64,000 bases of DNA from GCF_056712565.1 NZ_CM160072.1, one strand, 5' to 3'. Shown: positions 4,981 to 21,661, numbered from the stretch's first letter. Made by a program: numbers and translations. The notes: generated by a model from the letters alone, not told the origin.

Positions 4981-5254
4981 AACGTGTTGCAATACCAGCG
5001 CCGGCATTGCGGAAATCAGCCCTGTCCCCGATGCTGGCGACACTCCCGCTCATCTTTCTGCTGACTCCTCTGGTCTGCCAACTGTTTGTCATCATTTCCT
5101 GACTGATTCGTCATTCCCTTCGTCCCGCCAGTCACTGGTGTTTGTATCGTACCGTCCGGTGTTGATGTGCGTTTTCCGTGTGTCTGCACCGGCTTAACAA
5201 AATTCAACAGGGTTTGAAAAGGAACATTTCGTGCAAATAACCGAAGCCTTAATT

Positions 5255-5590
5255 TCAGAGCCGGGAGACATCCGGCGTTTTGTTCAGCAGGCGCTGGAGT
5301 TCTTTAATCTGCTTCATGGCAGCAGCAAGTTCAGAGGCAGGAACGACCTGTTCTCCTGCGGCCACAGCAGTAAGACTTCCCTCCTGGTATTGCTTGCGCC
5401 AGAGAAATAACTGGCTGGCTGCCACACCGTGTTGCCGGGCAACAAGGGAGACCGTCATTCCCGGTTCAAAGCTCTGCTGAACAATAGCGATCTTTTCCTG
5501 TGTAGTACGCCGTCTGCGTTTCTCCGGTCCTAAGACATCAATCATCTGTTCTCCAATGACTGGTCTAAAAACTAGTATTAAGACTATCAC
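5255..5590 (-). mobile_element. IS66-family accessory protein TnpA (orfA) relic; rest of the IS is missing
   Basis: [44 protein letters not shown] matches the IS66 OrfA signature; no orfB/tnpC follows. Confidence 0.6.
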
Positions 5591-5728
5591 TTAAATAAGT
5601 GATATTGGTTGTCTGGAGATTCTGGGGGCTAGTCTAGTTTTAAAGCGCCCCCTGCCGTATCAGAACTGGGGAATGCTACAGGGTTTGACCTGTTCCTCGA
5701 GGATCGTAGCGGAGCTAGCCATGAAAAA

Positions 5729-6793
5729 ATGATCCAGGCCCGAAATCAGCTTCTTGCTGAAGCGGCGAAAAGTCCAGCGTTAAACATGGTTCGTCCTAAC
5801 GGCATGAACGATGAGCCTCAGTTCCAGATTCTGATTGATGACGAGAAAGTTCAGGCGTTTAAACTGAGCATGAGCGACGTCGACAACATAATGTCAGCAG
5901 CCTGGGGTTCGATGTATGTAAATGATTTTAACGATCGTGGACGGGTGAAAAAAGTCTATATTCAGGGCGAACCCGGCTCACGTATATCACCGCAGGATTT
6001 TGATAAATGGTATGTCCGTAACAGTGATGGCGACATGGTTTCCTTTGCCTCTTTTGCAACAGGCAAATGGATTTATGGCTCACCAAAACTGGAGCAATAT
6101 AATGGTATCTCTGCTGTCGAAATCCTGGGGGAACCGGCACCAGGATACAGTTCCGGGGATGCAATGAAAGCAATTGAGGATATTGCGGCAAGACTTCCCG
6201 AAGGTTTCCATATTTCCTGGACAGGTTTGTCTTTTGAGGAACGACTTTCAGGTTCTCAGGCTCCTGCACTATATGCACTTTCACTGTTGATCGTCTTTCT
6301 GTGTCTGGCTGCACTGTATGAAAGCTGGAGCATTCCTTTCTCGGTCATGCTGGTTGTTCCGCTTGGTGTCCTGGGGGCTGTCTGTGCTACTTTGTTGCGC
6401 GGCCTTGGTAACGATGTCTTTTTCCAGGTCGGTTTATTAACAACAATAGGGCTGTCTGCGAAAAATGCCATACTTATCGTGGAGTTTGCTCGTGAATTGC
6501 ATGAGAAAGAAGGACTAAGCATTAAAGAGGCTGCTGTTGAAGCGGCGAGAGTGAGGTTAAGACCGATAATTATGACTTCGCTGGCATTTGTAATGGGGGT
6601 TATCCCACTGGCTGTCTCGACTGGAGCAAGTTCCGGAAGTAAACATGCCATCGGTACTGGTGTGGTTGGAGGGATGATCACTGCTACGATACTGGCAATC
6701 TTTTATATTCCTCTCTTCTATATGTTAATTGCCGGGTTCTTCAGCCGCAGAAATAAGAAATCATCGGATAAGACTGAAGCTGAGCAATCATAA
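5729..6793 (+). pseudogene. C-terminal third of an RND multidrug efflux permease (AcrB/AcrF-like); 5' two-thirds absent
   Basis: ORF aligns to the last ~350 residues of AcrB ([19 protein letters not shown]..., [20 protein letters not shown]..., MTSLAF) with nothing coding for the N-terminal ~650 aa. Confidence 0.75.
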
Positions 6794-6892
6794 GCATGAG
6801 TAAATATTCAGGTGCAGTAAACAACATACTGCGCCTGAGTAAATGGCTGTTGGGTTGGTACTAAATGCCCCAGAGATATTTCCTGAAATAAG

Positions 6893-7264
6893 ATGTCAAT
6901 GGAGATTTCAACAGTGGTGCGGCACACAAAATTTGCAGCGGAAGAAACCCGCAAACAAATCCTGGATGTGGCAGAGTTCTGCTTTTGTGAGACGGGCTTT
7001 TCGAAGACGACACTGGAGATGATTGCGGCGCGCGCAGGTTGTACTCGGGGGGCCATATACTGGTATTTCAACGAAAAAAAAGATCTTCTGCGACAAGTCA
7101 TCGAGCGGGTACCACTATCATTATTTGATGAGCTTACAGCCATCAAAAATGGGAGAGTTTTTGAACCGGTTAAAGCGATGTATCGTTGCTTATCACGTAG
7201 CCTGATTAAATTACAATATAATGTACACTTACGGAATGTAATTTATATTGTGTTTTTTTTGTGA
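6893..7264 (+). pseudogene. TetR/AcrR-family regulator, N-terminal HTH retained, C-terminus degenerate
   Basis: TetR HTH signature (TTLEMIAARAGCTRGAIYWYFNEKKDLL); ORF is only 123 aa and ends in low-complexity sequence. Confidence 0.55.
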
Positions 7265-7535
7265 AGAATGTCCGGATGATATAAGAATAAATTTCTTACA
7301 AAAAATGGTGGATGTCAATAATTTTGTGAAATTACTATGTTATATTTTCGAAAAAGGTAAGTTATATAGAGAAATATGTTTGGAAATTCGTAGTGAGACT
7401 CTGGCGTTCCTGCTTTTTTCTTTGTTTACGGGGGGGGGCGAAGTTGCATTCTGCAACCTGATAATAAATCCCTTTTCAGAGAGGGTTGCATAGTACTGGA
7501 GTTGACCCAATCAACCTTCACAGGCATCGATAAAA

Positions 7536-7881
7536 ATGAACGCTACTATAAAAAACAGCTCTGATATCAATGAGTTTGCTAAATGGATTGATGAAAATCT
7601 TGAGGTAGAACTCTCAATAAATATTGAGGCAAAAAAAGCTGGATATTCAAAATGGTATTTACAGAGATTGTTTAAACATATCATTGGTATTTCTATTGGT
7701 AGGTATATTAATAAATGCAGCAGAAGAACTACGTTCTACTACTGAATCGGTCACGACTATCACTTTTAAATATCAGTTTGATTTTCAGCAGACATTTACA
7801 AGGGCATTTACTCGCCGCTTTGGTATAGCTCCTATTGCATACCGAAAACTCGCTAAGGAAGAAGTGAGATGGAATAGTTAG
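7536..7881 (+). pseudogene. MarA/RamA/SoxS-like small AraC-family activator, split by a frameshift
   Basis: Two overlapping ORFs (7536..7745, 7624..7881) carry the two halves of a MarA-type double HTH (AGYSKWYLQRLFK... / ...FDFQQTFTRAFTRRFGIAPIAYRK). Confidence 0.55.
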
Positions 7882-12674: not shown

Positions 12675-14515
12675 GATCACCACCTACATAGGAGGTGTTT
12701 TAAAATTGATCGAGTAGGAGGCGGGATCACTCCCGCCGTCCTCTCACACCACCGTACATGCGGCTCCGCATACGGCGGTTCATGTTAACACTGGAACTGC
12801 CTCTGCTGTTCCAGCAGTGATATCAGACCCTGCCTGCTGAACCACGCATTCTTTATCGCCTGATTCATATGGCTTGACTCTGAGTTCCACCATGGCCCGT
12901 GGTTGTTGTACGCTGAGATCATCGCCCTGTCCTTACTCAGTCCTGCTCTTTGCAGGTTCTTTGCCCGGGTTAGCGGTCTCTTCCACTGCCGCTACAACAA
13001 GCAACGCAGTTTCCGTTTGATCCAGCCATCCAGCTCCTCCAGCACTCCTCTGACCTCCGTCAGCCTGAAGTAGCTTATCCATCCACACAGCACTGGTGTC
13101 AGAGCATTGATTGTCGCTTTCACTGATTTGCTCCGGTTTCCCGTCGTCAGACTGTGGACTTTCTCCTTCAGCCTGTTCACGCTCGTCAGGGCTATCTTCA
13201 GCTTCGCCTGTTTGTGCCATGTCACACTGTACCCGAGGAACTTCCGATCCCACGGGCGCGCCACCGCGCTCTTCTTCTCATTCACCTTCAGTTTGTTCTC
13301 CACGAACGCCCTGATGTTCTTCAGCAGATGGTCGCCCGCTTTCCGGCTGCTTACGTAGATGTTGCAGTCGTCTGCGTAGCGGCAGAAGCTGTGTCCACGA
13401 CGCTCCAGTTCTTTATCCAGTTCATCCAGCAGGATGTTCGACAGTAACGGCGACAGTGGGCCGCCCTGCAGCATGCCCGCCTGCCGTTTCTCCCTTTGCC
13501 CGTCTTTAACCATTTCCGCTTTCAGGTAGCGGCGTATCAGTCACAGCACCCGCCTGTCCTTTATCGTTCTGGCCAGACGCGTCATCAGGAGTCTGTGATC
13601 CACCCGGTCGAAGAACTTCTCCAGATCCATATCCACCACCCACCGTTTGCCACCCCGTATGTAACGCTGTGCCTGTTGCACCGCCTGCTGGATAAGCCTG
13701 TCCACCACCGTCGGGATGCCTGAGGTTCTCACGCCGCCATCCGGCTTCGGGATATCCATCCGGCGTATTGTCCGCGGCTGGTAGTTTCCGTCAATCAATG
13801 CCTGCCTGACGCTGCGCCAGTTCTTCTTCAGCCACGGTTTCAACTCCGCCACGCTGAGGTTATCCACCCCCGCCGTGCCTTTGTTTTCCACCACGCGCTG
13901 ATAAGCCAGCATCAGGTTTTCTCTCGTTATCACCGCTTCCATCGTCAGCGGCACTTCCGCTTTCGTTTGCCCACCCGCCGCCGTGCTGATTTCAGCGCCA
14001 TCATGCAGCCCTGACGGATACTGTCCGTCTCCTCTGCCGCTGGTCGCAGTGGCCTGCGCTTGTGCTTCATTAATCATCATCGGGTTCGGATGTCCTAATC
14101 ACAGTTAATCATGTTCGGCCCTTCATGCTGCCGGTTTTGCAGCACTACTACGGCGTCGGCTGACTTCTGCCGCCCCATCCCGGCGCCTCACGGCGCCGGT
14201 AGCACACTGGCAGGGCGACAGATCTCCCGGGGTAATTCACGCGACTTTCCTGCTTATGCCTGTCGGCTTTACGTCACAGCGTTCCGTGTGAGTATCGGGC
14301 TTTGGTGATTAGTGCCACCTTACCCTGCTGCGCCGCCTTAACCGCTTCCTGTTCGTCAGGCCAGCATTTTGCATCCAGCTTCCTTCAGATTTCACCTCGC
14401 GATGAACACCCTTGCCTTCCGCTAACACTTCCCCTCACCGGGTGTGTGGAGGACTTTCACCTCTTAGTCGTTCTTCTGCCACCACAGTTGAAGAACAGCG
14501 CCAGTCACGGCGCAC
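12675..14515 (-). mobile_element. Group II intron (~1.8 kb) inserted just downstream of the microcompartment operon terminator; ends approximate
   Basis: Minus-strand GTGCG at 14515..14511 8-9 nt after the terminator T-tract; RT/maturase ORF inside; domain V-like hairpin at ~12745..12775 (CCGTATGCGG / CCGCATGTACGG with 2-nt bulge) and GNRA-capped helix after it. Confidence 0.65.
12784..14080 (-). pseudogene. Group II intron reverse transcriptase/maturase, disrupted by one frameshift (~13515-13540) and one in-frame TAG (12992-12994)
   Basis: RT blocks 0-2 in ORF 13541..14080 (AGVDNLSVAEL, IPKPDGGVRTSGIPTVVDRLIQQA, DMDLEKFFDRVDH); RT4-5 in ORF 12992..13513 (QGGPLSPLLSNILLD, FCRYADDCNIY); maturase tail continues in the same frame past the TAG (QWKRPLTRAKNL...LISLLEQQRQFQC). 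Confidence 0.7.
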
Positions 14516-14519
14516 ATAA

Positions 14520-14552
14520 CAAAAAGCCAGCAGGCAGACACTGCTGGCTTTT
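14520..14552 (-). terminator. Rho-independent terminator of the microcompartment structural operon
   Basis: GCCAGCAG-loop-CTGCTGGC stem followed by TTTTTGTT on the minus strand, 14 nt after the stop at 14566. Confidence 0.6.
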
Positions 14553-14565
14553 TGTTATGGCGGGA

Positions 14566-15471
14566 TTAAAACAGGGGAACCAAGGTAAATAATCCAATGG
14601 TCGCCAACAGATTAATCATCGTGGTCATAATGGTGATGACCATCGCCGGCGGGTCAATATGTGTATCGCCGTGGATCAGGAAGATACGCGACATCAGTTC
14701 ACCCAATATCGCGCAAATTATGCCAACGATAGCAGCCCAAATCAGGCTACCTGATGGCACCGCTACCAACGCGGCAGGCAGCGAAATATGATGTGACACC
14801 GGTACCTGAGTATTGAAATGCAGGAAAATCAGTGAGAACGCGGAAATACCAAACGCCAGCAGCGCGCCGTTGCCGCCAAACTTCAGGCCTAAAAAGCCTG
14901 CCATCAAGCCAATACCCAAGCCCAGCACGGAAAGCTGCGGAATGCGGCTATGGTAAGGTATCCAGCACTTATCCTGCGGCGGATAGCAGTGACGAATTCC
15001 CTGCTCCGGTTTTCCAAACAGGCCAGTTTTACCGAAAACCAGACGCGAGACCACGCCAGAAATCACCACGGTTAGTGCCACGGTATCGGTCCAAGCATTG
15101 CCGGACGGGAAGGCCGGAATCTGGTTCAACCCCCAGGCGATGATGTAACCAACCGCCCCAAAAACCCCGCCTACCAGCAGCACATCGTAAGCCGCCAGAC
15201 CGCTCAACCCGGCAGTGATATCACGCCCGGAACCCAGCTTGCCTTTCTTCGCTGCATACGCCGTCGCCGCAACCCCAGCGGCAAAGCCGCCGGTGTGCGG
15301 GCCAAACAGTCCAAACGGAAAAGTAATAAAGTCCGATGATGCTCCGGTAATAATTTGCACTACCGTCATGGCGATAACCAGAAGCCCAACGAATTCAAAC
15401 GCCGCCAGCGCGCCAACAGCCGCACCAAATATGCCGCCGCCGAAGGCAACTACAATATCTAAGCTATTCAT
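14566..15471 (-). CDS. Gly-rich polytopic membrane protein, last gene of the microcompartment operon; putative substrate/product facilitator of unknown family
   Basis: 301 aa with ~8 hydrophobic Gly/Ala-rich segments; no NPA (aquaporin) or obvious EutH/FocA signature. Confidence 0.5.
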   Translation of the reverse strand: MNSLDIVVAFGGGIFGAAVGALAAFEFVGLLVIAMTVVQIITGASSDFITFPFGLFGPHTGGFAAGVAATAYAAKKGKLGSGRDITAGLSGLAAYDVLLVGGVFGAVGYIIAWGLNQIPAFPSGNAWTDTVALTVVISGVVSRLVFGKTGLFGKPEQGIRHCYPPQDKCWIPYHSRIPQLSVLGLGIGLMAGFLGLKFGGNGALLAFGISAFSLIFLHFNTQVPVSHHISLPAALVAVPSGSLIWAAIVGIICAILGELMSRIFLIHGDTHIDPPAMVITIMTTMINLLATIGLFTLVPLF

Positions 15472-16633: not shown

Positions 16634-19186
16634 TTACGACAGTTGTTGCTCAGTACGGCTGATTATGTCGTCCTGAACTTCTTTCGCTAAAACTACCCAC
16701 TGGGCGCTATAGCCCGCAACGCGTACCACCAGATCCTGATGTTGCTCAGGATTTTTCTGGGCTTCGATCAAAGTGTTGCGGTCGATAACGTTAAATTGAA
16801 CGTGCATCCCTTTCTTATCGAAGTAGTGACGTATCAGGCCGCTGAAGTTGCGCAGACCGTTCTCGCCAGCCAAAGAAGACGGCAGGAATTTCTGATTATA
16901 GAGCGTACCGTTGGAGGCGATAAAGTGATCCAGTTTGGCAACTGAGTTGGCTGCGGCGGTTGGGCCAAGGGTGTCTTTACCCTGACGTGGAGATACGCCA
17001 TCCGCCAACGGCTCTTTCGCCAGACGGCCATCCGGCAGTGCGGCAACGTCTTTACCAAACAGCACGTTCGCAGACACCGGATAGATACCAGCCTGGAACT
17101 GGCCACCGCGCGGGTTGGTATATTTCTCAACTTCCTGGCAGTAGATCAGCGCACATTTACGCGCTACTAAATCCACGTCATCGATGTCGTTACCGAAGCA
17201 CGGTGTGTTTTCCAGAATACGACGGATCTCCTCGTGACGGGACATAGTGCCGGATTGCACCGGTGCTGCACTGCCGGAAGTCAGCTGGCGATAAACTTCG
17301 TTTTTAATCGCTGCCGGATCCAGCGCGCCATGCTGTTCAATGATGCGTTTCACCACATCGTAGATATCCTGCTCGTTGAGCGAGGATTTCGCCGCTGGAG
17401 TGTGCGGGTTCGCACCCACCGGATAACCGAAGTTGGCGTCCAGTGCGCTTTTCAGTTCGCTCAAAGACAGTTTACGATCTTCGAATACCTGTTTCTGGAT
17501 GGCATAGACGGAGTCGCCGGTATCGGCTACGCCGAATGCTTGCGGCCCAGTAAAGTTGTAAATCGCCCCGCCTTCCTGGAGAGATTTACCACGGCCGATA
17601 CAGTCGTCGACCAGTGCTGATAGGAACGGCAGCGGGCAGCGTTCGCCGTGGGCAATATCCACGCTGTTACAGGCTTCAACCAGTTGATGAACGAAGTGCG
17701 CCATCTGTTTCTGGAACGCGGTGTAGAAGTCCTCCATGCTGGTGAACTGAGTCAGTTCGCCAGTCACTGGGCCTAGCTGTTTATTGCCAACGCGACCGTT
17801 GTTCAGGGTGATTTCCAGCACTTTTGCAACGTTAAAGAACGCGGCGTCATGCCAGCCCTCGGTGCGATGCGGTGCCTGCGGCTCTACGCAGCCGATGATA
17901 CAGTAATCACGCGCATCACGCAGCGAAATGCCACGGTTCTGCAGCGCCGGGATGATTACTTCATCGTTGTACATTGCCGGAACGCCCAGGCCCATACGCA
18001 CCAGCTCGCAAGCGCGATACAGAAACTCATCCGGAGTACCCTGCCATACGCGGATTGAGAAGGATGGCTGCGGCAGACGCACATGGGCAGTCGCTTCCAT
18101 ACACATGTAGCTCAGATCGTTAGTTGCGTCGCGACCGTCTTCTGTCTGGCCGCCACAGCACAGGTTCTGGAACACTGCGTAACCGGCAAACGCCTGGGCA
18201 GAGACTTCGTCACGCGTTTTGTTAATGTCGTTAAGCTTGATCCAGCAGCAATCCACCAGTTCCTGCGCGAATTCACGCGAGATAGATTTGTCCGACTCCA
18301 GATACGGGTACATATACTGGTCGAAACGCCCCGGGGAGATAGAATGACCGCTGGATTCAATCTGTAACATGCTCTGAATAAACCAGAATGTCTGGCATGC
18401 TTCCCAGAATGTGGTAGCACCGTATTCCGGCACGCGAGTACAGTTTTGAGCAATCTGCTCCAGTTCGCGTTTACGGGTCGGATTGCTCTCCTGCTGCGCC
18501 AGACGGGATGCTTCTTCAGCGTAACGATGGGCGAAACGGATCGCTGCGTTATAACTGATCAGCACCGCATTATAGAACTGTTCTTTCTTTATATATCCTG
18601 GTTCAGTGCGATCTAATGATTCCAAGGCACGGCTAACTTCATTAATGATACCACGGAAACCAATTTTCAGCACTTTACCGTAGTCAACACTGACATGACC
18701 GACGCCCCCGAAGAAGTAGTTACCAACAGTGAATACACCGCTCGCCATACTCTCTTTAGTGCCTTCTGACATGTAAGATGCCGCCAGAGCACTGGTAGTT
18801 TTACCCGGCCAGTATTTAAATGCTTCATGAAGCTCCTGAGCAGTCTTTTTCGGGATAACAAACGGGTCGGCAATACGGTGTTCCATAGTCTCAAACTCTT
18901 TTTCCACCCAGTCGTAGGAGAACTCAGGGCAGATTTCAGTTGAGCGAGGATTAATAGTTACCGCTCCAACGATTAATTCGTCTGGGCGAATTGTTACCGG
19001 TAATTGGTTAAAGATTTTTTCCACCACTTTAGCACGACGCATAATCGCGGGCAGTTGTTCTGTTTCTTTATATGCTTCGGTTGCTAACACCGCGCGTTCT
19101 GATTCCACATACGGCTTCGCCGTCAGGATCATATTTCTCAGTCTTACAACACGGTCTGTCGGATTAGAAAAGCCTTTCTCTAACAT
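16634..19186 (-). CDS. Glycyl radical enzyme, 850 aa; most likely B12-independent 1,2-propanediol dehydratase (choline TMA-lyase not excluded)
   Basis: C-terminal glycine-radical motif RVAGYSA; active-site GCVEP loop; size and neighbours (activase, PduL, PduP-like, kinase, Fe-ADH, shell genes) fit the dehydratase/lyase class rather than PFL. Confidence 0.85.
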   Translation of the reverse strand: MLEKGFSNPTDRVVRLRNMILTAKPYVESERAVLATEAYKETEQLPAIMRRAKVVEKIFNQLPVTIRPDELIVGAVTINPRSTEICPEFSYDWVEKEFETMEHRIADPFVIPKKTAQELHEAFKYWPGKTTSALAASYMSEGTKESMASGVFTVGNYFFGGVGHVSVDYGKVLKIGFRGIINEVSRALESLDRTEPGYIKKEQFYNAVLISYNAAIRFAHRYAEEASRLAQQESNPTRKRELEQIAQNCTRVPEYGATTFWEACQTFWFIQSMLQIESSGHSISPGRFDQYMYPYLESDKSISREFAQELVDCCWIKLNDINKTRDEVSAQAFAGYAVFQNLCCGGQTEDGRDATNDLSYMCMEATAHVRLPQPSFSIRVWQGTPDEFLYRACELVRMGLGVPAMYNDEVIIPALQNRGISLRDARDYCIIGCVEPQAPHRTEGWHDAAFFNVAKVLEITLNNGRVGNKQLGPVTGELTQFTSMEDFYTAFQKQMAHFVHQLVEACNSVDIAHGERCPLPFLSALVDDCIGRGKSLQEGGAIYNFTGPQAFGVADTGDSVYAIQKQVFEDRKLSLSELKSALDANFGYPVGANPHTPAAKSSLNEQDIYDVVKRIIEQHGALDPAAIKNEVYRQLTSGSAAPVQSGTMSRHEEIRRILENTPCFGNDIDDVDLVARKCALIYCQEVEKYTNPRGGQFQAGIYPVSANVLFGKDVAALPDGRLAKEPLADGVSPRQGKDTLGPTAAANSVAKLDHFIASNGTLYNQKFLPSSLAGENGLRNFSGLIRHYFDKKGMHVQFNVIDRNTLIEAQKNPEQHQDLVVRVAGYSAQWVVLAKEVQDDIISRTEQQLS

Positions 19187-19234
19187 ATAAAACTCCCGAA
19201 TATATTTTGTTAACCTTGCGGAGATGCCAGGGTA

Positions 19235-19810
19235 TTAATGAATAATGCTAGTGCCCATTTGAGTAATAAAGTGACGTAATATTGCTGGATGCCCCATCCA
19301 GGTAGTCGCGGTTATTAAATTACCATCCACAATGGCTTCATCATCTGCGGCAGTGACCCACTGGCCACCCGCCATTTCCACTTCCGGTTTTACCGTAAAA
19401 TATCCCGTCAGTTTCCGGCCTTTTAATACCCCAGCAGCGGCCAGAATTTGTGGGCCATGACAAATTGCAGCAACAGGTAATGTTAAATTCATCGCGTAAT
19501 GCACGATATCCAATACTGACTTATTTAATCGCAAGTATTCCGATGAACGCCCACCAGAAATATAAACACCACTATATTCCTGTAACCTTATGTCATCAAA
19601 TGATGCAGTTAATCTAAAAAGATGTCCGGGTTTTTCGGTGTAGGTCTGATCACCTTCAAAATCATGAATCGCGGTTTTAATAAACTCGCCGGTACGTTTT
19701 CCCGGACACACTACATCCACTCTGAAACCTAACATGTTTAATGCCTGCCATGGCACCATGACTTCATAGTCTTCAGAGAAATCGCCTGTGATAAGTAATA
19801 TCTTCTTCAT
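19235..19810 (-). CDS. DJ-1/PfpI-family protein (class I glutamine amidotransferase-like fold)
   Basis: MKKILLITGDFSEDYE start and the conserved nucleophile elbow AICHGP; the ORF track start at 19945 is an upstream extension overlapping the preceding gene. Confidence 0.7.
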   Translation of the reverse strand: MKKILLITGDFSEDYEVMVPWQALNMLGFRVDVVCPGKRTGEFIKTAIHDFEGDQTYTEKPGHLFRLTASFDDIRLQEYSGVYISGGRSSEYLRLNKSVLDIVHYAMNLTLPVAAICHGPQILAAAGVLKGRKLTGYFTVKPEVEMAGGQWVTAADDEAIVDGNLITATTWMGHPAILRHFITQMGTSIIH

Positions 19811-19820
19811 AAGCGGACTC

Positions 19821-20120
19821 TCAAAACTGGTTATCGTCTTCCTCAATGATTCGCATGGCTTCATGCACCGCCGCGACTTCGCCAAAAATGGCCAATGTGG
19901 TGATATGCTGAGGGCAACTGCCAAAGATTTCTGATACCACCACATTGGCGCTTTTACTGGCTACGTCGGCATAAAAATAGAGATCCGGAACCGGCAGTAT
20001 TAACAAACCAATGGCGTCGATGCGAATCAAATCCAAACGCGAACGAAACTCCCCGGGCATACGCCGTTTCAACATAGCCAAAATATCCGGGGTCGGTGCG
20101 TTTATGATTCGTTTTTTCAT
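19821..20120 (-). CDS. Circularly permuted BMC-H shell protein (PduU/EutS-like)
   Basis: IDAIGLLILPVP...ADVASKSANVVV...LAIFGEVAAVHEAM parallels the PduU/EutS core (AIGILTITP...CDIATKSGAV...GAVVLTGDVSAVEYAL). Confidence 0.65.
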   Translation of the reverse strand: MKKRIINAPTPDILAMLKRRMPGEFRSRLDLIRIDAIGLLILPVPDLYFYADVASKSANVVVSEIFGSCPQHITTLAIFGEVAAVHEAMRIIEEDDNQF

Positions 20121-20143
20121 CTTTAAGTCACCCTTCGCGATAG

Positions 20144-21661
20144 TTAGCGAATATTCAGCGCTTCAACCATTACACAGCGACGACGGCGTGCAAACGAACG
20201 CGCTGACGTAAGTCCCTCGCCGGTCGGTCCGGCAATCGTAAAGGTGGCATGCCCTTCACCGCCCACCCCCAGCCCTGCATAAGAGGGACCATTTTTAACA
20301 AAGATGGTGGTCTGGATCAGGCGCGCCATTTTGGTCAGCTTTTCGACGTTGGTGGAGTGCATAACCGCGGTATGACGATTGCCGTGCTCCACTTTCACCG
20401 CCAGCTCAATGGCTTCATCAACATTGTCTACGCGCACCACCGGCAGGACCGGCATCATCAGCTCATGCACCACAAACGGATGTGTTTTCTCAGCCTCAAT
20501 TAAGATGACTTTGATATCGTCGCCAACCTGGATTCCCAGTTGTTGCAGGATATAGCGCGCATCTTTGCCGACAAAGGCGGTATTCGGCCCAGTGCCTTTT
20601 TCATTAAGCACCAACGATTGCAGTTGTTGACTTAACTTCTTATCGCACAACAGATAGGCACCGCTTTTCTTCATGCAGTGAATCAGATAGTCCGCTACCT
20701 GGTTCACAACAATCACCTCTTTTTCCGCCACGCACGGCAGGTTGTTGTCGAAGCTACAGCCCTTAATGATGTCGCGGGCTGCTTTTTCGATATCCGCCGT
20801 TTCATCTACCACAGCTGGCGGGTTACCTGCGCCTGCACCAATCGCTTTTTTACCTGATGACATCACGGTTTTCACGATGGCTGGACCGCCAGTCGCTACC
20901 AGCATGTTGATACGTGGGTCGTTGATCAGGACGTTGGTATTGTCGATGGACGGTTTGGTCACCGTTACCACCATGTTCGCCGGTGCGCCCAACTGGGCAA
21001 GCTTGTTGTTGATCAGCTCAACCGCGTACAGCGACACTTTGCGCGAGCGCGGATGTGGACTGAACACCACAGTGTTGCCTGCCGCCAGCATGCCTATGCT
21101 GTTGTTGATAATGGTTTCGGTCGGGTTAGTCGTTGGTGTAATCGAACCAATCACTCCGAACGCAGAGTATTCGATCAACGTTAAACCCCCGTCTCCGGAA
21201 ACCGCGCTGGTGGTCAGATCTTCGATACCTGGCGTTTTCAGCGCTGCGACGCGGTTTTTGATCAGTTTGTCCTCGTAATTCCCCATGCCGGTCTCTTCCA
21301 CCGCCATACGGGAAAGGGCACACAGCACATCTTCCTGCAGGAAGACATCGCGAATGCCATTGATAAACGAGGCGCGGTCTTGCATAGAACAGTGGCGATA
21401 CTGTACCTGTGCCAAGACGGCGGCGGAAATCGCCTCATCCATGGTATCGAATGCTCCAGTGCTAGCATTCGCTACCTTCGCTACCTGAGAGATCGCACTG
21501 GCGTCGCGCACGGAAGAGTGCTGCGCCAACGCCTTAGCGACAATTTCATCCAACCCGTCGACCCGCGCTGCTTCTGACGTGGCGGGAGCTTCATCCGGTG
21601 TTGCTTTGGTGAATTTGCTCAGGATGGTCGAGACAGCCTGAGCGATTTCAATATCATTCAT
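20144..21661 (-). CDS. CoA-acylating aldehyde dehydrogenase (PduP/EutE-like) with N-terminal extension (putative encapsulation peptide)
   Basis: Aldehyde-DH fold with catalytic Cys region (NNLPCVAEKEV) and GxGxxG-like dinucleotide site; ~40 aa N-terminal extension before the catalytic core. Confidence 0.8.
   Translation of the reverse strand: MNDIEIAQAVSTILSKFTKATPDEAPATSEAARVDGLDEIVAKALAQHSSVRDASAISQVAKVANASTGAFDTMDEAISAAVLAQVQYRHCSMQDRASFINGIRDVFLQEDVLCALSRMAVEETGMGNYEDKLIKNRVAALKTPGIEDLTTSAVSGDGGLTLIEYSAFGVIGSITPTTNPTETIINNSIGMLAAGNTVVFSPHPRSRKVSLYAVELINNKLAQLGAPANMVVTVTKPSIDNTNVLINDPRINMLVATGGPAIVKTVMSSGKKAIGAGAGNPPAVVDETADIEKAARDIIKGCSFDNNLPCVAEKEVIVVNQVADYLIHCMKKSGAYLLCDKKLSQQLQSLVLNEKGTGPNTAFVGKDARYILQQLGIQVGDDIKVILIEAEKTHPFVVHELMMPVLPVVRVDNVDEAIELAVKVEHGNRHTAVMHSTNVEKLTKMARLIQTTIFVKNGPSYAGLGVGGEGHATFTIAGPTGEGLTSARSFARRRRCVMVEALNIR

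Follow-up and report, generated by a model that had tools for sequence, protein, structure and literature searches.

GrpL of the Escherichia coli grp locus is a single-domain DJ-1d-like protein and a candidate accessory 2-oxoaldehyde hydratase encoded next to a glycyl radical enzyme

A stretch of 64,000 nucleotides of NZ_CM160072.1 (GCF_056712565.1), referred to here as the window, contains on its minus strand, at positions 19235 to 19810, the gene grpL of the E. coli grp locus, a locus for a GRM3-type 1,2-propanediol bacterial microcompartment (BMC) with a glycyl radical enzyme (GRE). The gene was already known, and neither a new element nor a new kind of system is described; what is added is a refinement of its annotation, namely its affiliation with the DJ-1d type of the DJ-1/PfpI family, its conserved residues and its pairing with the GRE. 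In RefSeq, the product is called 'propanediol utilization system protease GrpL' within the cluster grpA-grpS, and every RefSeq copy carries the name protease, whereas sequence and structure group GrpL with a demonstrated glyoxalase III. On the basis of sequence comparisons, we propose with moderate confidence that GrpL is an accessory 2-oxoaldehyde hydratase, that is, a homo-oligomer with glutathione-independent glyoxalase III chemistry, and not a protease. The database label 'protease' is not favoured over 'glyoxalase III-like' by these comparisons. The gene and the residues considered below are located in the window as follows:

19235-19810, minus strand: grpL coding sequence, with the ATG at 19810 and the TAA at 19235-19237; 191 amino acids, single-domain, DJ-1d-like (RefSeq WP_000722279.1)
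19772-19774, minus strand: codon of Glu13, the counterpart of DJ-1 Glu18 by alignment, invariant
19640-19675, minus strand: core of the DJ-1d subfamily insert, residues 46-57 (TAIHDFEGDQTY), a 12-mer identical in the C-domain of Arabidopsis DJ-1d
19538-19540, minus strand: codon of Glu91 in the motif GGRSSEY, the counterpart of PH1704 Glu74 in the HMMER alignment to 1g2i, invariant
19457-19462, minus strand: codons of Cys117-His118 in the AICHGP elbow, aligned with PH1704 Cys100-His101

The translation places the motif AICHGP at residues 115-120, giving Cys117-His118, and the DJ-1_PfpI profile of Pfam (PF01965) covers residues 2-183 (model positions 1-164/165) with an E-value of 2.2e-41. The family assignment and the nucleophile-elbow cysteine of the original prediction are thus borne out; the matches to this profile and to TIGR01382 are far above chance. 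A mechanical list of open reading frames (ORFs) also offered an extended frame up to 19945 (236 amino acids), which was ruled out. The start at 19810 is preferred because the longer frame runs into the neighbouring gene grpK, and because RefSeq and all homologues agree on a protein that begins with MKK.

In a search of all PDB sequences, the top matches of GrpL by a very wide margin were the entries of Arabidopsis DJ-1d (AtDJ-1d; 4OFW, 3UK7 and 4OGG; E about 1e-121), each tandem domain of which aligns to residues 2-189 of GrpL. This strengthens the lead towards glyoxalase III that had been suggested from the family membership. The same search gave the following E-values for other members of the superfamily:

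PfpI/PH1704: 5.5e-24
YhbO: 6e-15
Drosophila DJ-1 beta: 3e-6
human DJ-1: 5e-4

GrpL is 54% identical to the C-domain and 49% identical to the N-domain of AtDJ-1d. The identity is approximately 36% to PH1704, 33% to YhbO and 22% to human DJ-1; the PH1704 sequence used matches the one in the HMMER alignment to 1g2i. An insert of approximately 14 residues is common to GrpL and AtDJ-1d, while PH1704/PfpI, YhbO and DJ-1 are without it. Within this insert, Thr46, Ala47, His49, Phe51, Gly53 and Tyr57 are invariant across the relatives, and residues 52-57 have a low predicted local distance difference test score (pLDDT) in the AlphaFold2 model of GrpL. The model as a whole reaches a pLDDT of 90.7 and a predicted template modelling score (pTM) of 0.88, and superimposes on AtDJ-1d with a template modelling (TM) score of 0.93 and a root mean square deviation of 1.4 Å. 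All top Foldseek matches were AtDJ-1d, including 4OGG, an entry described as AtDJ-1d 'with glyoxylate as substrate analog', whereas PfpI-class structures gave TM scores of 0.78-0.84. In NCBIfam, GrpL exceeds the cutoff of TIGR01382, the model of the DJ-1/PfpI/YhbO deglycase/protease subfamily (152.9 bits, cutoff 139.05), and stays below those of NF040823, the 'deglycase PfpI' equivalog (90.9 bits, cutoff 330), and NF003168, the HchA equivalog (26.2 bits, cutoff 365).

AtDJ-1d shows the highest glyoxalase III activity among the Arabidopsis DJ-1 proteins (PMC5859077), and according to a passage in PMC10127264 that cites Choi et al. (2014), its product is D-lactate only, with a kcat of 0.692 s-1 on phenylglyoxal that lies between those of human DJ-1 and Hsp31. 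This glutathione-independent glyoxalase III (AT3G02720) has the same Glu and Cys-His residues as GrpL, but is a tandem two-domain fusion of 387 amino acids, whereas GrpL is one domain of 191 amino acids and would therefore have to oligomerise to build an interface equivalent to that of AtDJ-1d. By analogy with the hexamers of PfpI and with AtDJ-1d, whose tandem domains form a pseudo-dimer, GrpL is probably a homo-oligomer in which Glu91 reaches the neighbouring active site. Unlike GrpL, the plant protein is without a link to glycyl radical enzymes or microcompartments. Hsp31 (HchA), the classical glyoxalase III of E. coli, belongs to the same superfamily with the same proposed chemistry, but is very distant from GrpL and has an extra cap domain. 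The DJ-1d family is unusually conserved between bacteria and plants, and its bacterial members, with their single domain, can serve as a simple model of the DJ-1d enzymes of plants. Plant proteins such as one of 305 amino acids from Ilex paraguariensis score as high as bacterial homologues, with approximately 60% identity.

The Cys-His-Glu triad, for which an alignment with Hsp31, YajL and DJ-1 had been suggested, was found in GrpL: Cys117-His118 corresponds to Cys100-His101 and Glu91 to Glu74 of PH1704, and Glu13 to Glu18 of DJ-1. In PfpI, the position of Glu91 is that of the third triad residue, which is donated across the dimer interface. Cys117 ends the strand 113-116 and precedes the helix 120-126 in the model, and is aligned with the catalytic cysteine of AtDJ-1d, PH1704 and DJ-1, as well as with a modified residue ('X') in both domains of 4OGG, where the modified cysteine is the site of the adduct. 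Across 78 relatives (19 encoded next to a GRE and 59 free-standing), the invariant set comprises Asp10, Glu13, Asp14, Tyr15, Glu16, His49, Glu59, His63, Gly86-Gly87-Arg88, Glu91, Tyr92, Cys117, His118, Gln121 and Trp171. The invariance of the catalytic residues indicates that catalysis is under selection and is unchanged in the GRE-linked clade. The positions that distinguish GRE-linked from free-standing proteins are 17, 29, 66, 83, 98, 104, 107, 141, 180, 183 and the last two residues; most of them lie in the model helices 97-108, 138-146 and 171-185, with charge changes at 98, 141, 180 and 183. As they miss all invariant catalytic and motif residues, an altered active site in the GRE-linked clade was ruled out.

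Thousands of relatives of GrpL are present in the protein database, and nearly all close relatives have a single domain and a length of 186-209 amino acids. Seven of the encoding contigs were looked up; in five of them the DJ-1d-like gene lies directly upstream of a GRE, and in two it stands alone:

Rhodospirillum rubrum: directly upstream of a GRE of approximately 845-850 amino acids, BMC locus
Vibrio salinus: directly upstream of a GRE of approximately 845-850 amino acids, BMC locus
Caproiciproducens: directly upstream of a GRE of approximately 845-850 amino acids, BMC locus
Cohaesibacter: directly upstream of a GRE of approximately 845-850 amino acids, BMC locus
Telmatospirillum: directly upstream of a GRE of approximately 845-850 amino acids, BMC locus
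Mucilaginibacter: alone
Clostridium saccharobutylicum: alone

At least 588 relatives were obtained when one genome per species was scanned, and the best 80 loci were examined by tblastn with the Grp proteins. A GRE was found directly downstream and on the same strand at 15 of these 80 loci and 2.2 kb away at one more, and approximately 60, which belong to Bacteroidota, Burkholderiales and many Lachnospiraceae, lacked a GRE within 6 kb, with at least 7 of them lying on contigs too short to judge. When the scan and the contig look-ups were pooled at the species level and duplicates removed, 19 distinct GRE-linked loci were obtained from Gammaproteobacteria, Alphaproteobacteria and Clostridia, a number that is a lower bound. 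At these loci the gene is directly upstream of the GRE, with gaps of 47-359 nucleotides, in three layouts. The order is shell(GrpU)-DJ1-GRE-activase in Enterobacterales and Vibrio, while in Alphaproteobacteria the DJ-1d-like gene comes first and is followed by GRE, alcohol dehydrogenase and shell genes. Caproiciproducens, the sole Clostridia locus with called genes, has PduV/EutP-DJ1-GRE-activase, and for the remaining clostridial loci, tblastn indicated the order DJ1-GRE-activase. In a neighbour-joining tree, which was built on 190 columns and is indicative only, the GRE-linked proteins cluster, the proteobacterial ones forming one clade with the clostridial ones adjacent; the two AtDJ-1d domains branch apart from the bacterial proteins, and the branch of PH1704 is long.

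One Eubacterium-like locus counted as free-standing contains an activase-MetK-PocR kinase-regulator block that is followed, at a distance of 5 kb, by the DJ-1d-like gene, and the GRE-linked count is therefore a lower bound. In Eubacterium-like metagenome-assembled genomes (contig stretches L032, 1-6564, and L026, 2553-7883), a sister clade of the DJ-1d-like gene is found near, but not adjoining, a divergent GRE (62% identity) or the activase-MetK-PocR block. The flanks retrieved for these loci showed no BMC shell genes, and the loci may represent a GRE system without a compartment in which the accessory gene has been retained.

In the proposed view, GrpL would be a bacterial equivalent, with one domain, of the DJ-1d-type glyoxalase III of plants, and would have an accessory role in detoxification within the Grp (GRM3-type) 1,2-propanediol pathway. 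By homology, Cys117 would attack the aldehyde carbon of a 2-oxoaldehyde such as methylglyoxal or glyoxal to form a hemithioacetal, Glu13 and His118 would move a proton to give a lactoyl-cysteine thioester, and water would then free D-lactate (or glycolate) without a need for glutathione. Such an activity could keep 2-oxoaldehydes away from the thiyl cysteine of the GRE, the clusters of the activase and the cysteine of the acylating aldehyde dehydrogenase. These compounds may accompany the metabolism of deoxy-sugars and propanediol, where they could arise from dihydroxyacetone phosphate via methylglyoxal synthase, or by oxidation of lactaldehyde or hydroxyacetone from side reactions of the iron alcohol dehydrogenase on 1,2-propanediol. 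Three reactive aldehydes had been named in the original prediction. Methylglyoxal fits, whereas propionaldehyde and lactaldehyde are implausible and were ruled out on mechanism, because the rearrangement of the cysteine hemithioacetal to the thioester in glyoxalase III requires a 2-oxoaldehyde; methylglyoxal and glyoxal are the only candidates that fit. The purpose of microcompartments is to contain reactive aldehydes, and if GrpL detoxifies carbonyls, the tie of such a conserved, cofactor-free enzyme to the characteristic radical enzyme would suggest that the pathway involves a second toxic species.

Several points weigh against a role of GrpL in the removal of 2-oxoaldehydes. No biochemical data were found for GrpL or for any single-domain bacterial member, the transfer of function within the DJ-1/PfpI family is notoriously unreliable, and the rates of glyoxalase III enzymes are low. 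The curated NCBIfam model that GrpL passes is that of the PfpI/YhbO 'deglycase/protease' group (TIGR01382), and RefSeq says protease. E. coli already has GloAB, HchA, YajL and YhbO, which leaves the need for a locus-specific glyoxalase unexplained, and a 2-oxoaldehyde is not the product of any canonical step of the Grp pathway. The genes around the free-standing homologues are a mixed set (LysR regulator, ECF sigma factor, GNAT, DppA, AAA protease, amidohydrolase) from which no function or pathway can be read. The strict pairing of the gene with the GRE could alternatively mean that the function of GrpL is directed at that enzyme. Moreover, Lundin and colleagues are said to have found in 2020 that 8 of the 19 grp genes are required for growth on 1,2-propanediol, with grpL probably not among them; if grpL is dispensable for this growth, any role of its product would be conditional.

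The name in RefSeq corresponds to a PfpI-type intracellular cysteine peptidase (MEROPS C56), which would serve to trim or degrade system proteins, such as an oxygen-cleaved or mis-assembled GRE, or act in regulation. The class of PfpI, PH1704 and YhbO (peptidase C56, TIGR01382) indeed has, at 29-36% identity, the fold, the ICHGPQIL elbow and the GGR..E motif in common with GrpL, the score for TIGR01382 is above the curated cutoff, and Cys117, His118 and Glu91 align with Cys100, His101 and Glu74 of PH1704; the term peptidase, with a perhaps regulatory role, was also used by Axen et al. (PMC4207490). However, the identity to PfpI proteins is only 32-36% compared with 49-54% to AtDJ-1d, the score for the PfpI equivalog NF040823 is far from its cutoff, the subfamily insert is not found in PfpI, and even PH1704 now bears the name 'deglycase' in its deposition. 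The name protease is apparently derived from homology and not from experiment. True proteolysis by the PfpI family is disputed, and we regard a peptidase function of GrpL as improbable. A hydrolase that uses the same cysteine on another reactive electrophile of the pathway, by analogy with the esterase and cyclic 3-phosphoglyceric anhydride hydrolase activities of DJ-1, also seems quite unlikely. Candidate substrates would be acylating species derived from acyl phosphates or thioesters, or S- and N-acyl adducts on proteins or coenzyme A (CoA). In passages of PMC11301059 and PMC12135873, these two activities of DJ-1 and HchA are described as using the same cysteine, and the annotations of grpJ, grpB and grpG imply that the Grp pathway yields propionyl-CoA and propionyl-phosphate; yet hydrolysis of the acyl intermediates of the pathway would waste its ATP yield, and the closest characterised homologue was assayed as a glyoxalase.

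The fixed position before the GRE would also be accounted for by a holdase, chaperone or maintenance factor that binds the diol dehydratase, protects or repairs it by means of the cysteine, and may enter the compartment by piggy-backing. The gene stands directly before the GRE at the 19 loci across three layouts, the GRE-linked proteins are near-monophyletic, and the positions that set them apart lie mostly in three helices and at the C-terminus with the active site unchanged; chaperone activity is moreover reported for relatives of Hsp31 and DJ-1 in a passage of PMC5691139. The fully invariant catalytic residues point instead to enzymatic turnover, most members of the family are without any GRE (approximately 60 of the best 80 loci), the adjacency of genes alone is no proof of binding, and GrpL is without an encapsulation peptide, which together make a chaperone of this kind doubtful. 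There is likewise a small chance that GrpL is a dedicated partner of the GRE diol dehydratase that was recruited once, was held directly upstream through every rearrangement of the locus, enters the compartment by binding the GRE, and either protects the cysteine of the GRE or clears a radical-specific electrophile, which would be, for example, a 2-oxoaldehyde from oxidation of a substrate-derived radical or of lactaldehyde. If this is true, GrpL would be the first example of a 'damage-control' enzyme that forms part of a bacterial microcompartment.

An encapsulation helix at the N- or C-terminus, which had been suggested as a feature to look for, is absent from GrpL: no terminal amphipathic helix set off by a linker was seen in the span of the Pfam match, the AlphaFold2 model or the relatives. 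Strand 1 starts at residue 3, and the last core helix ends at residue 185, followed by six low-confidence disordered residues; the relatives are without a conserved terminal extension. The C-terminal tail of 11 amino acids in the relatives from Vibrio and Celerinatantimonas was ruled out as an encapsulation peptide, as it is short, rich in Gly and Ser and not conserved. GrpL would therefore be either cytosolic or brought into the compartment by binding a cargo protein.

The neighbouring genes in the window, annotated from RefSeq and from the identical region of E. coli ATCC 11775, are:

8238-28592, all on the minus strand: grp locus from grpS to grpA, GRM3-type 1,2-propanediol microcompartment
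19821-20120, minus strand: grpK, GrpU-type BMC shell protein (match to 4OLP, GrpU, E 1.4e-48; RefSeq annotation)
16634-19186, minus strand: grpM, glycyl radical diol dehydratase of 850 amino acids
15608-16525, minus strand: grpN, GRE-activating enzyme

The stop codon of grpK, which ends at 19821, is separated by 10 nucleotides from the ATG of grpL, and 48 nucleotides lie between the stop codon of grpL and the ATG of grpM at 19186. The match to 4OLP identifies grpK as a GrpU-type shell gene, and the tight packing between the GRE and the shell gene of the metabolosome operon was confirmed. GrpU was reportedly described by Thompson and colleagues in 2014 as a circularly permuted shell protein that binds an Fe-S cluster, which fits the permuted shell gene of the original prediction. 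A homologue of grpK always immediately precedes the DJ-1d-like gene in the loci of Enterobacterales and Vibrio. No terminator-like site was found in 18900-20300, hence none between grpK, grpL and grpM, and promoter-like matches in the same interval were no more numerous than in shuffled sequences. The gene grpL is probably co-transcribed with grpM. A PADLOC search of grpK, grpL and grpM for anti-phage defence gave no match.

The 851 bases around grpL (19100-19950) are 100% identical to those of E. coli ATCC 11775, where the gene occupies positions 14136-14711 of the retrieved stretch (L001) and RefSeq uses the start that corresponds to 19810, and to those of many human isolates. The gene is thus the known grpL of E. 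coli CFT073 and ATCC 11775, with grpK and grpM as neighbours there too. According to the RefSeq annotation of this identical locus, the cluster contains the GRE and its activase, shell genes of the BMC-H, BMC-T and BMC-P types, an aldehyde dehydrogenase, a phosphotransacylase and an alcohol dehydrogenase, as well as a kinase, a flavoprotein, an EutJ homologue, an S-adenosylmethionine synthetase, a two-component pair and a DUF336 protein; grpL is its sole peptidase-family gene. The grp names originate with Lundin et al. (2020, J Bacteriol 202:e00017-20), as cited in passages of PMC8007038 and PMC11724981, and the two-component system GrpP/GrpQ has been linked to uropathogenicity (PMC11724981). 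That a DJ-1/PfpI protein is not a standard named component holds for pdu and eut operons, from whose nomenclature GrpL is absent only because the locus is a grp locus. It does not hold for the present type of locus, for which RefSeq has the name grpL and in which a 'peptidase' of unclear, perhaps regulatory, role has been on record since 2014, when Axen, Erbilgin and Kerfeld (PMC4207490) listed it with the other ancillary genes that are conserved in GRM3 loci. The ancillary genes listed there match those of the present locus, and from the gene list we infer that the peptidase is the DJ-1/PfpI gene. In the literature searched, outside the scope of which several key BMC papers fall, no link of microcompartments to GrpL, DJ-1, PfpI or glyoxalase III was found, nor did we find the placement of GrpL in the DJ-1d glyoxalase III subfamily or its fixed position upstream of the GRE remarked upon.

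Among 5426 complete E. coli genomes, 538 contain grpL, nearly all with at least 99% identity, and the same number (538 of 5426) contain grpM. The grp locus is thus present in approximately 10% of E. coli, largely of the uropathogenic type. A single one of the 538 copies of grpL and grpM is plasmid-borne, and a divergent allele occurs in three genomes (grpL 95-99% and grpM 90-95% identity).

Between grpO and grpP, two adjoining ORFs of 173 and 179 amino acids (12992-14080, minus strand) are annotated in RefSeq as 'reverse transcriptase domain-containing protein' and 'maturase', and look like a split or degenerate ORF of a group II intron. At the corresponding place of the V. salinus locus (L003, 14272-15747), that is, after the activase and ahead of the shell/MetK/regulator block, a ParE/Phd toxin-antitoxin pair and a phage-type integrase are found. 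Mobile elements have therefore inserted at the same junction of the locus in two species. The DNA beside the grpS end in ATCC 11775 (L001, 1-2782, approximately 5100-7880 of the window) contains fragments of a transposase, an RND pump and TetR/AraC regulators, in keeping with an acquisition of the grp cluster as an island.

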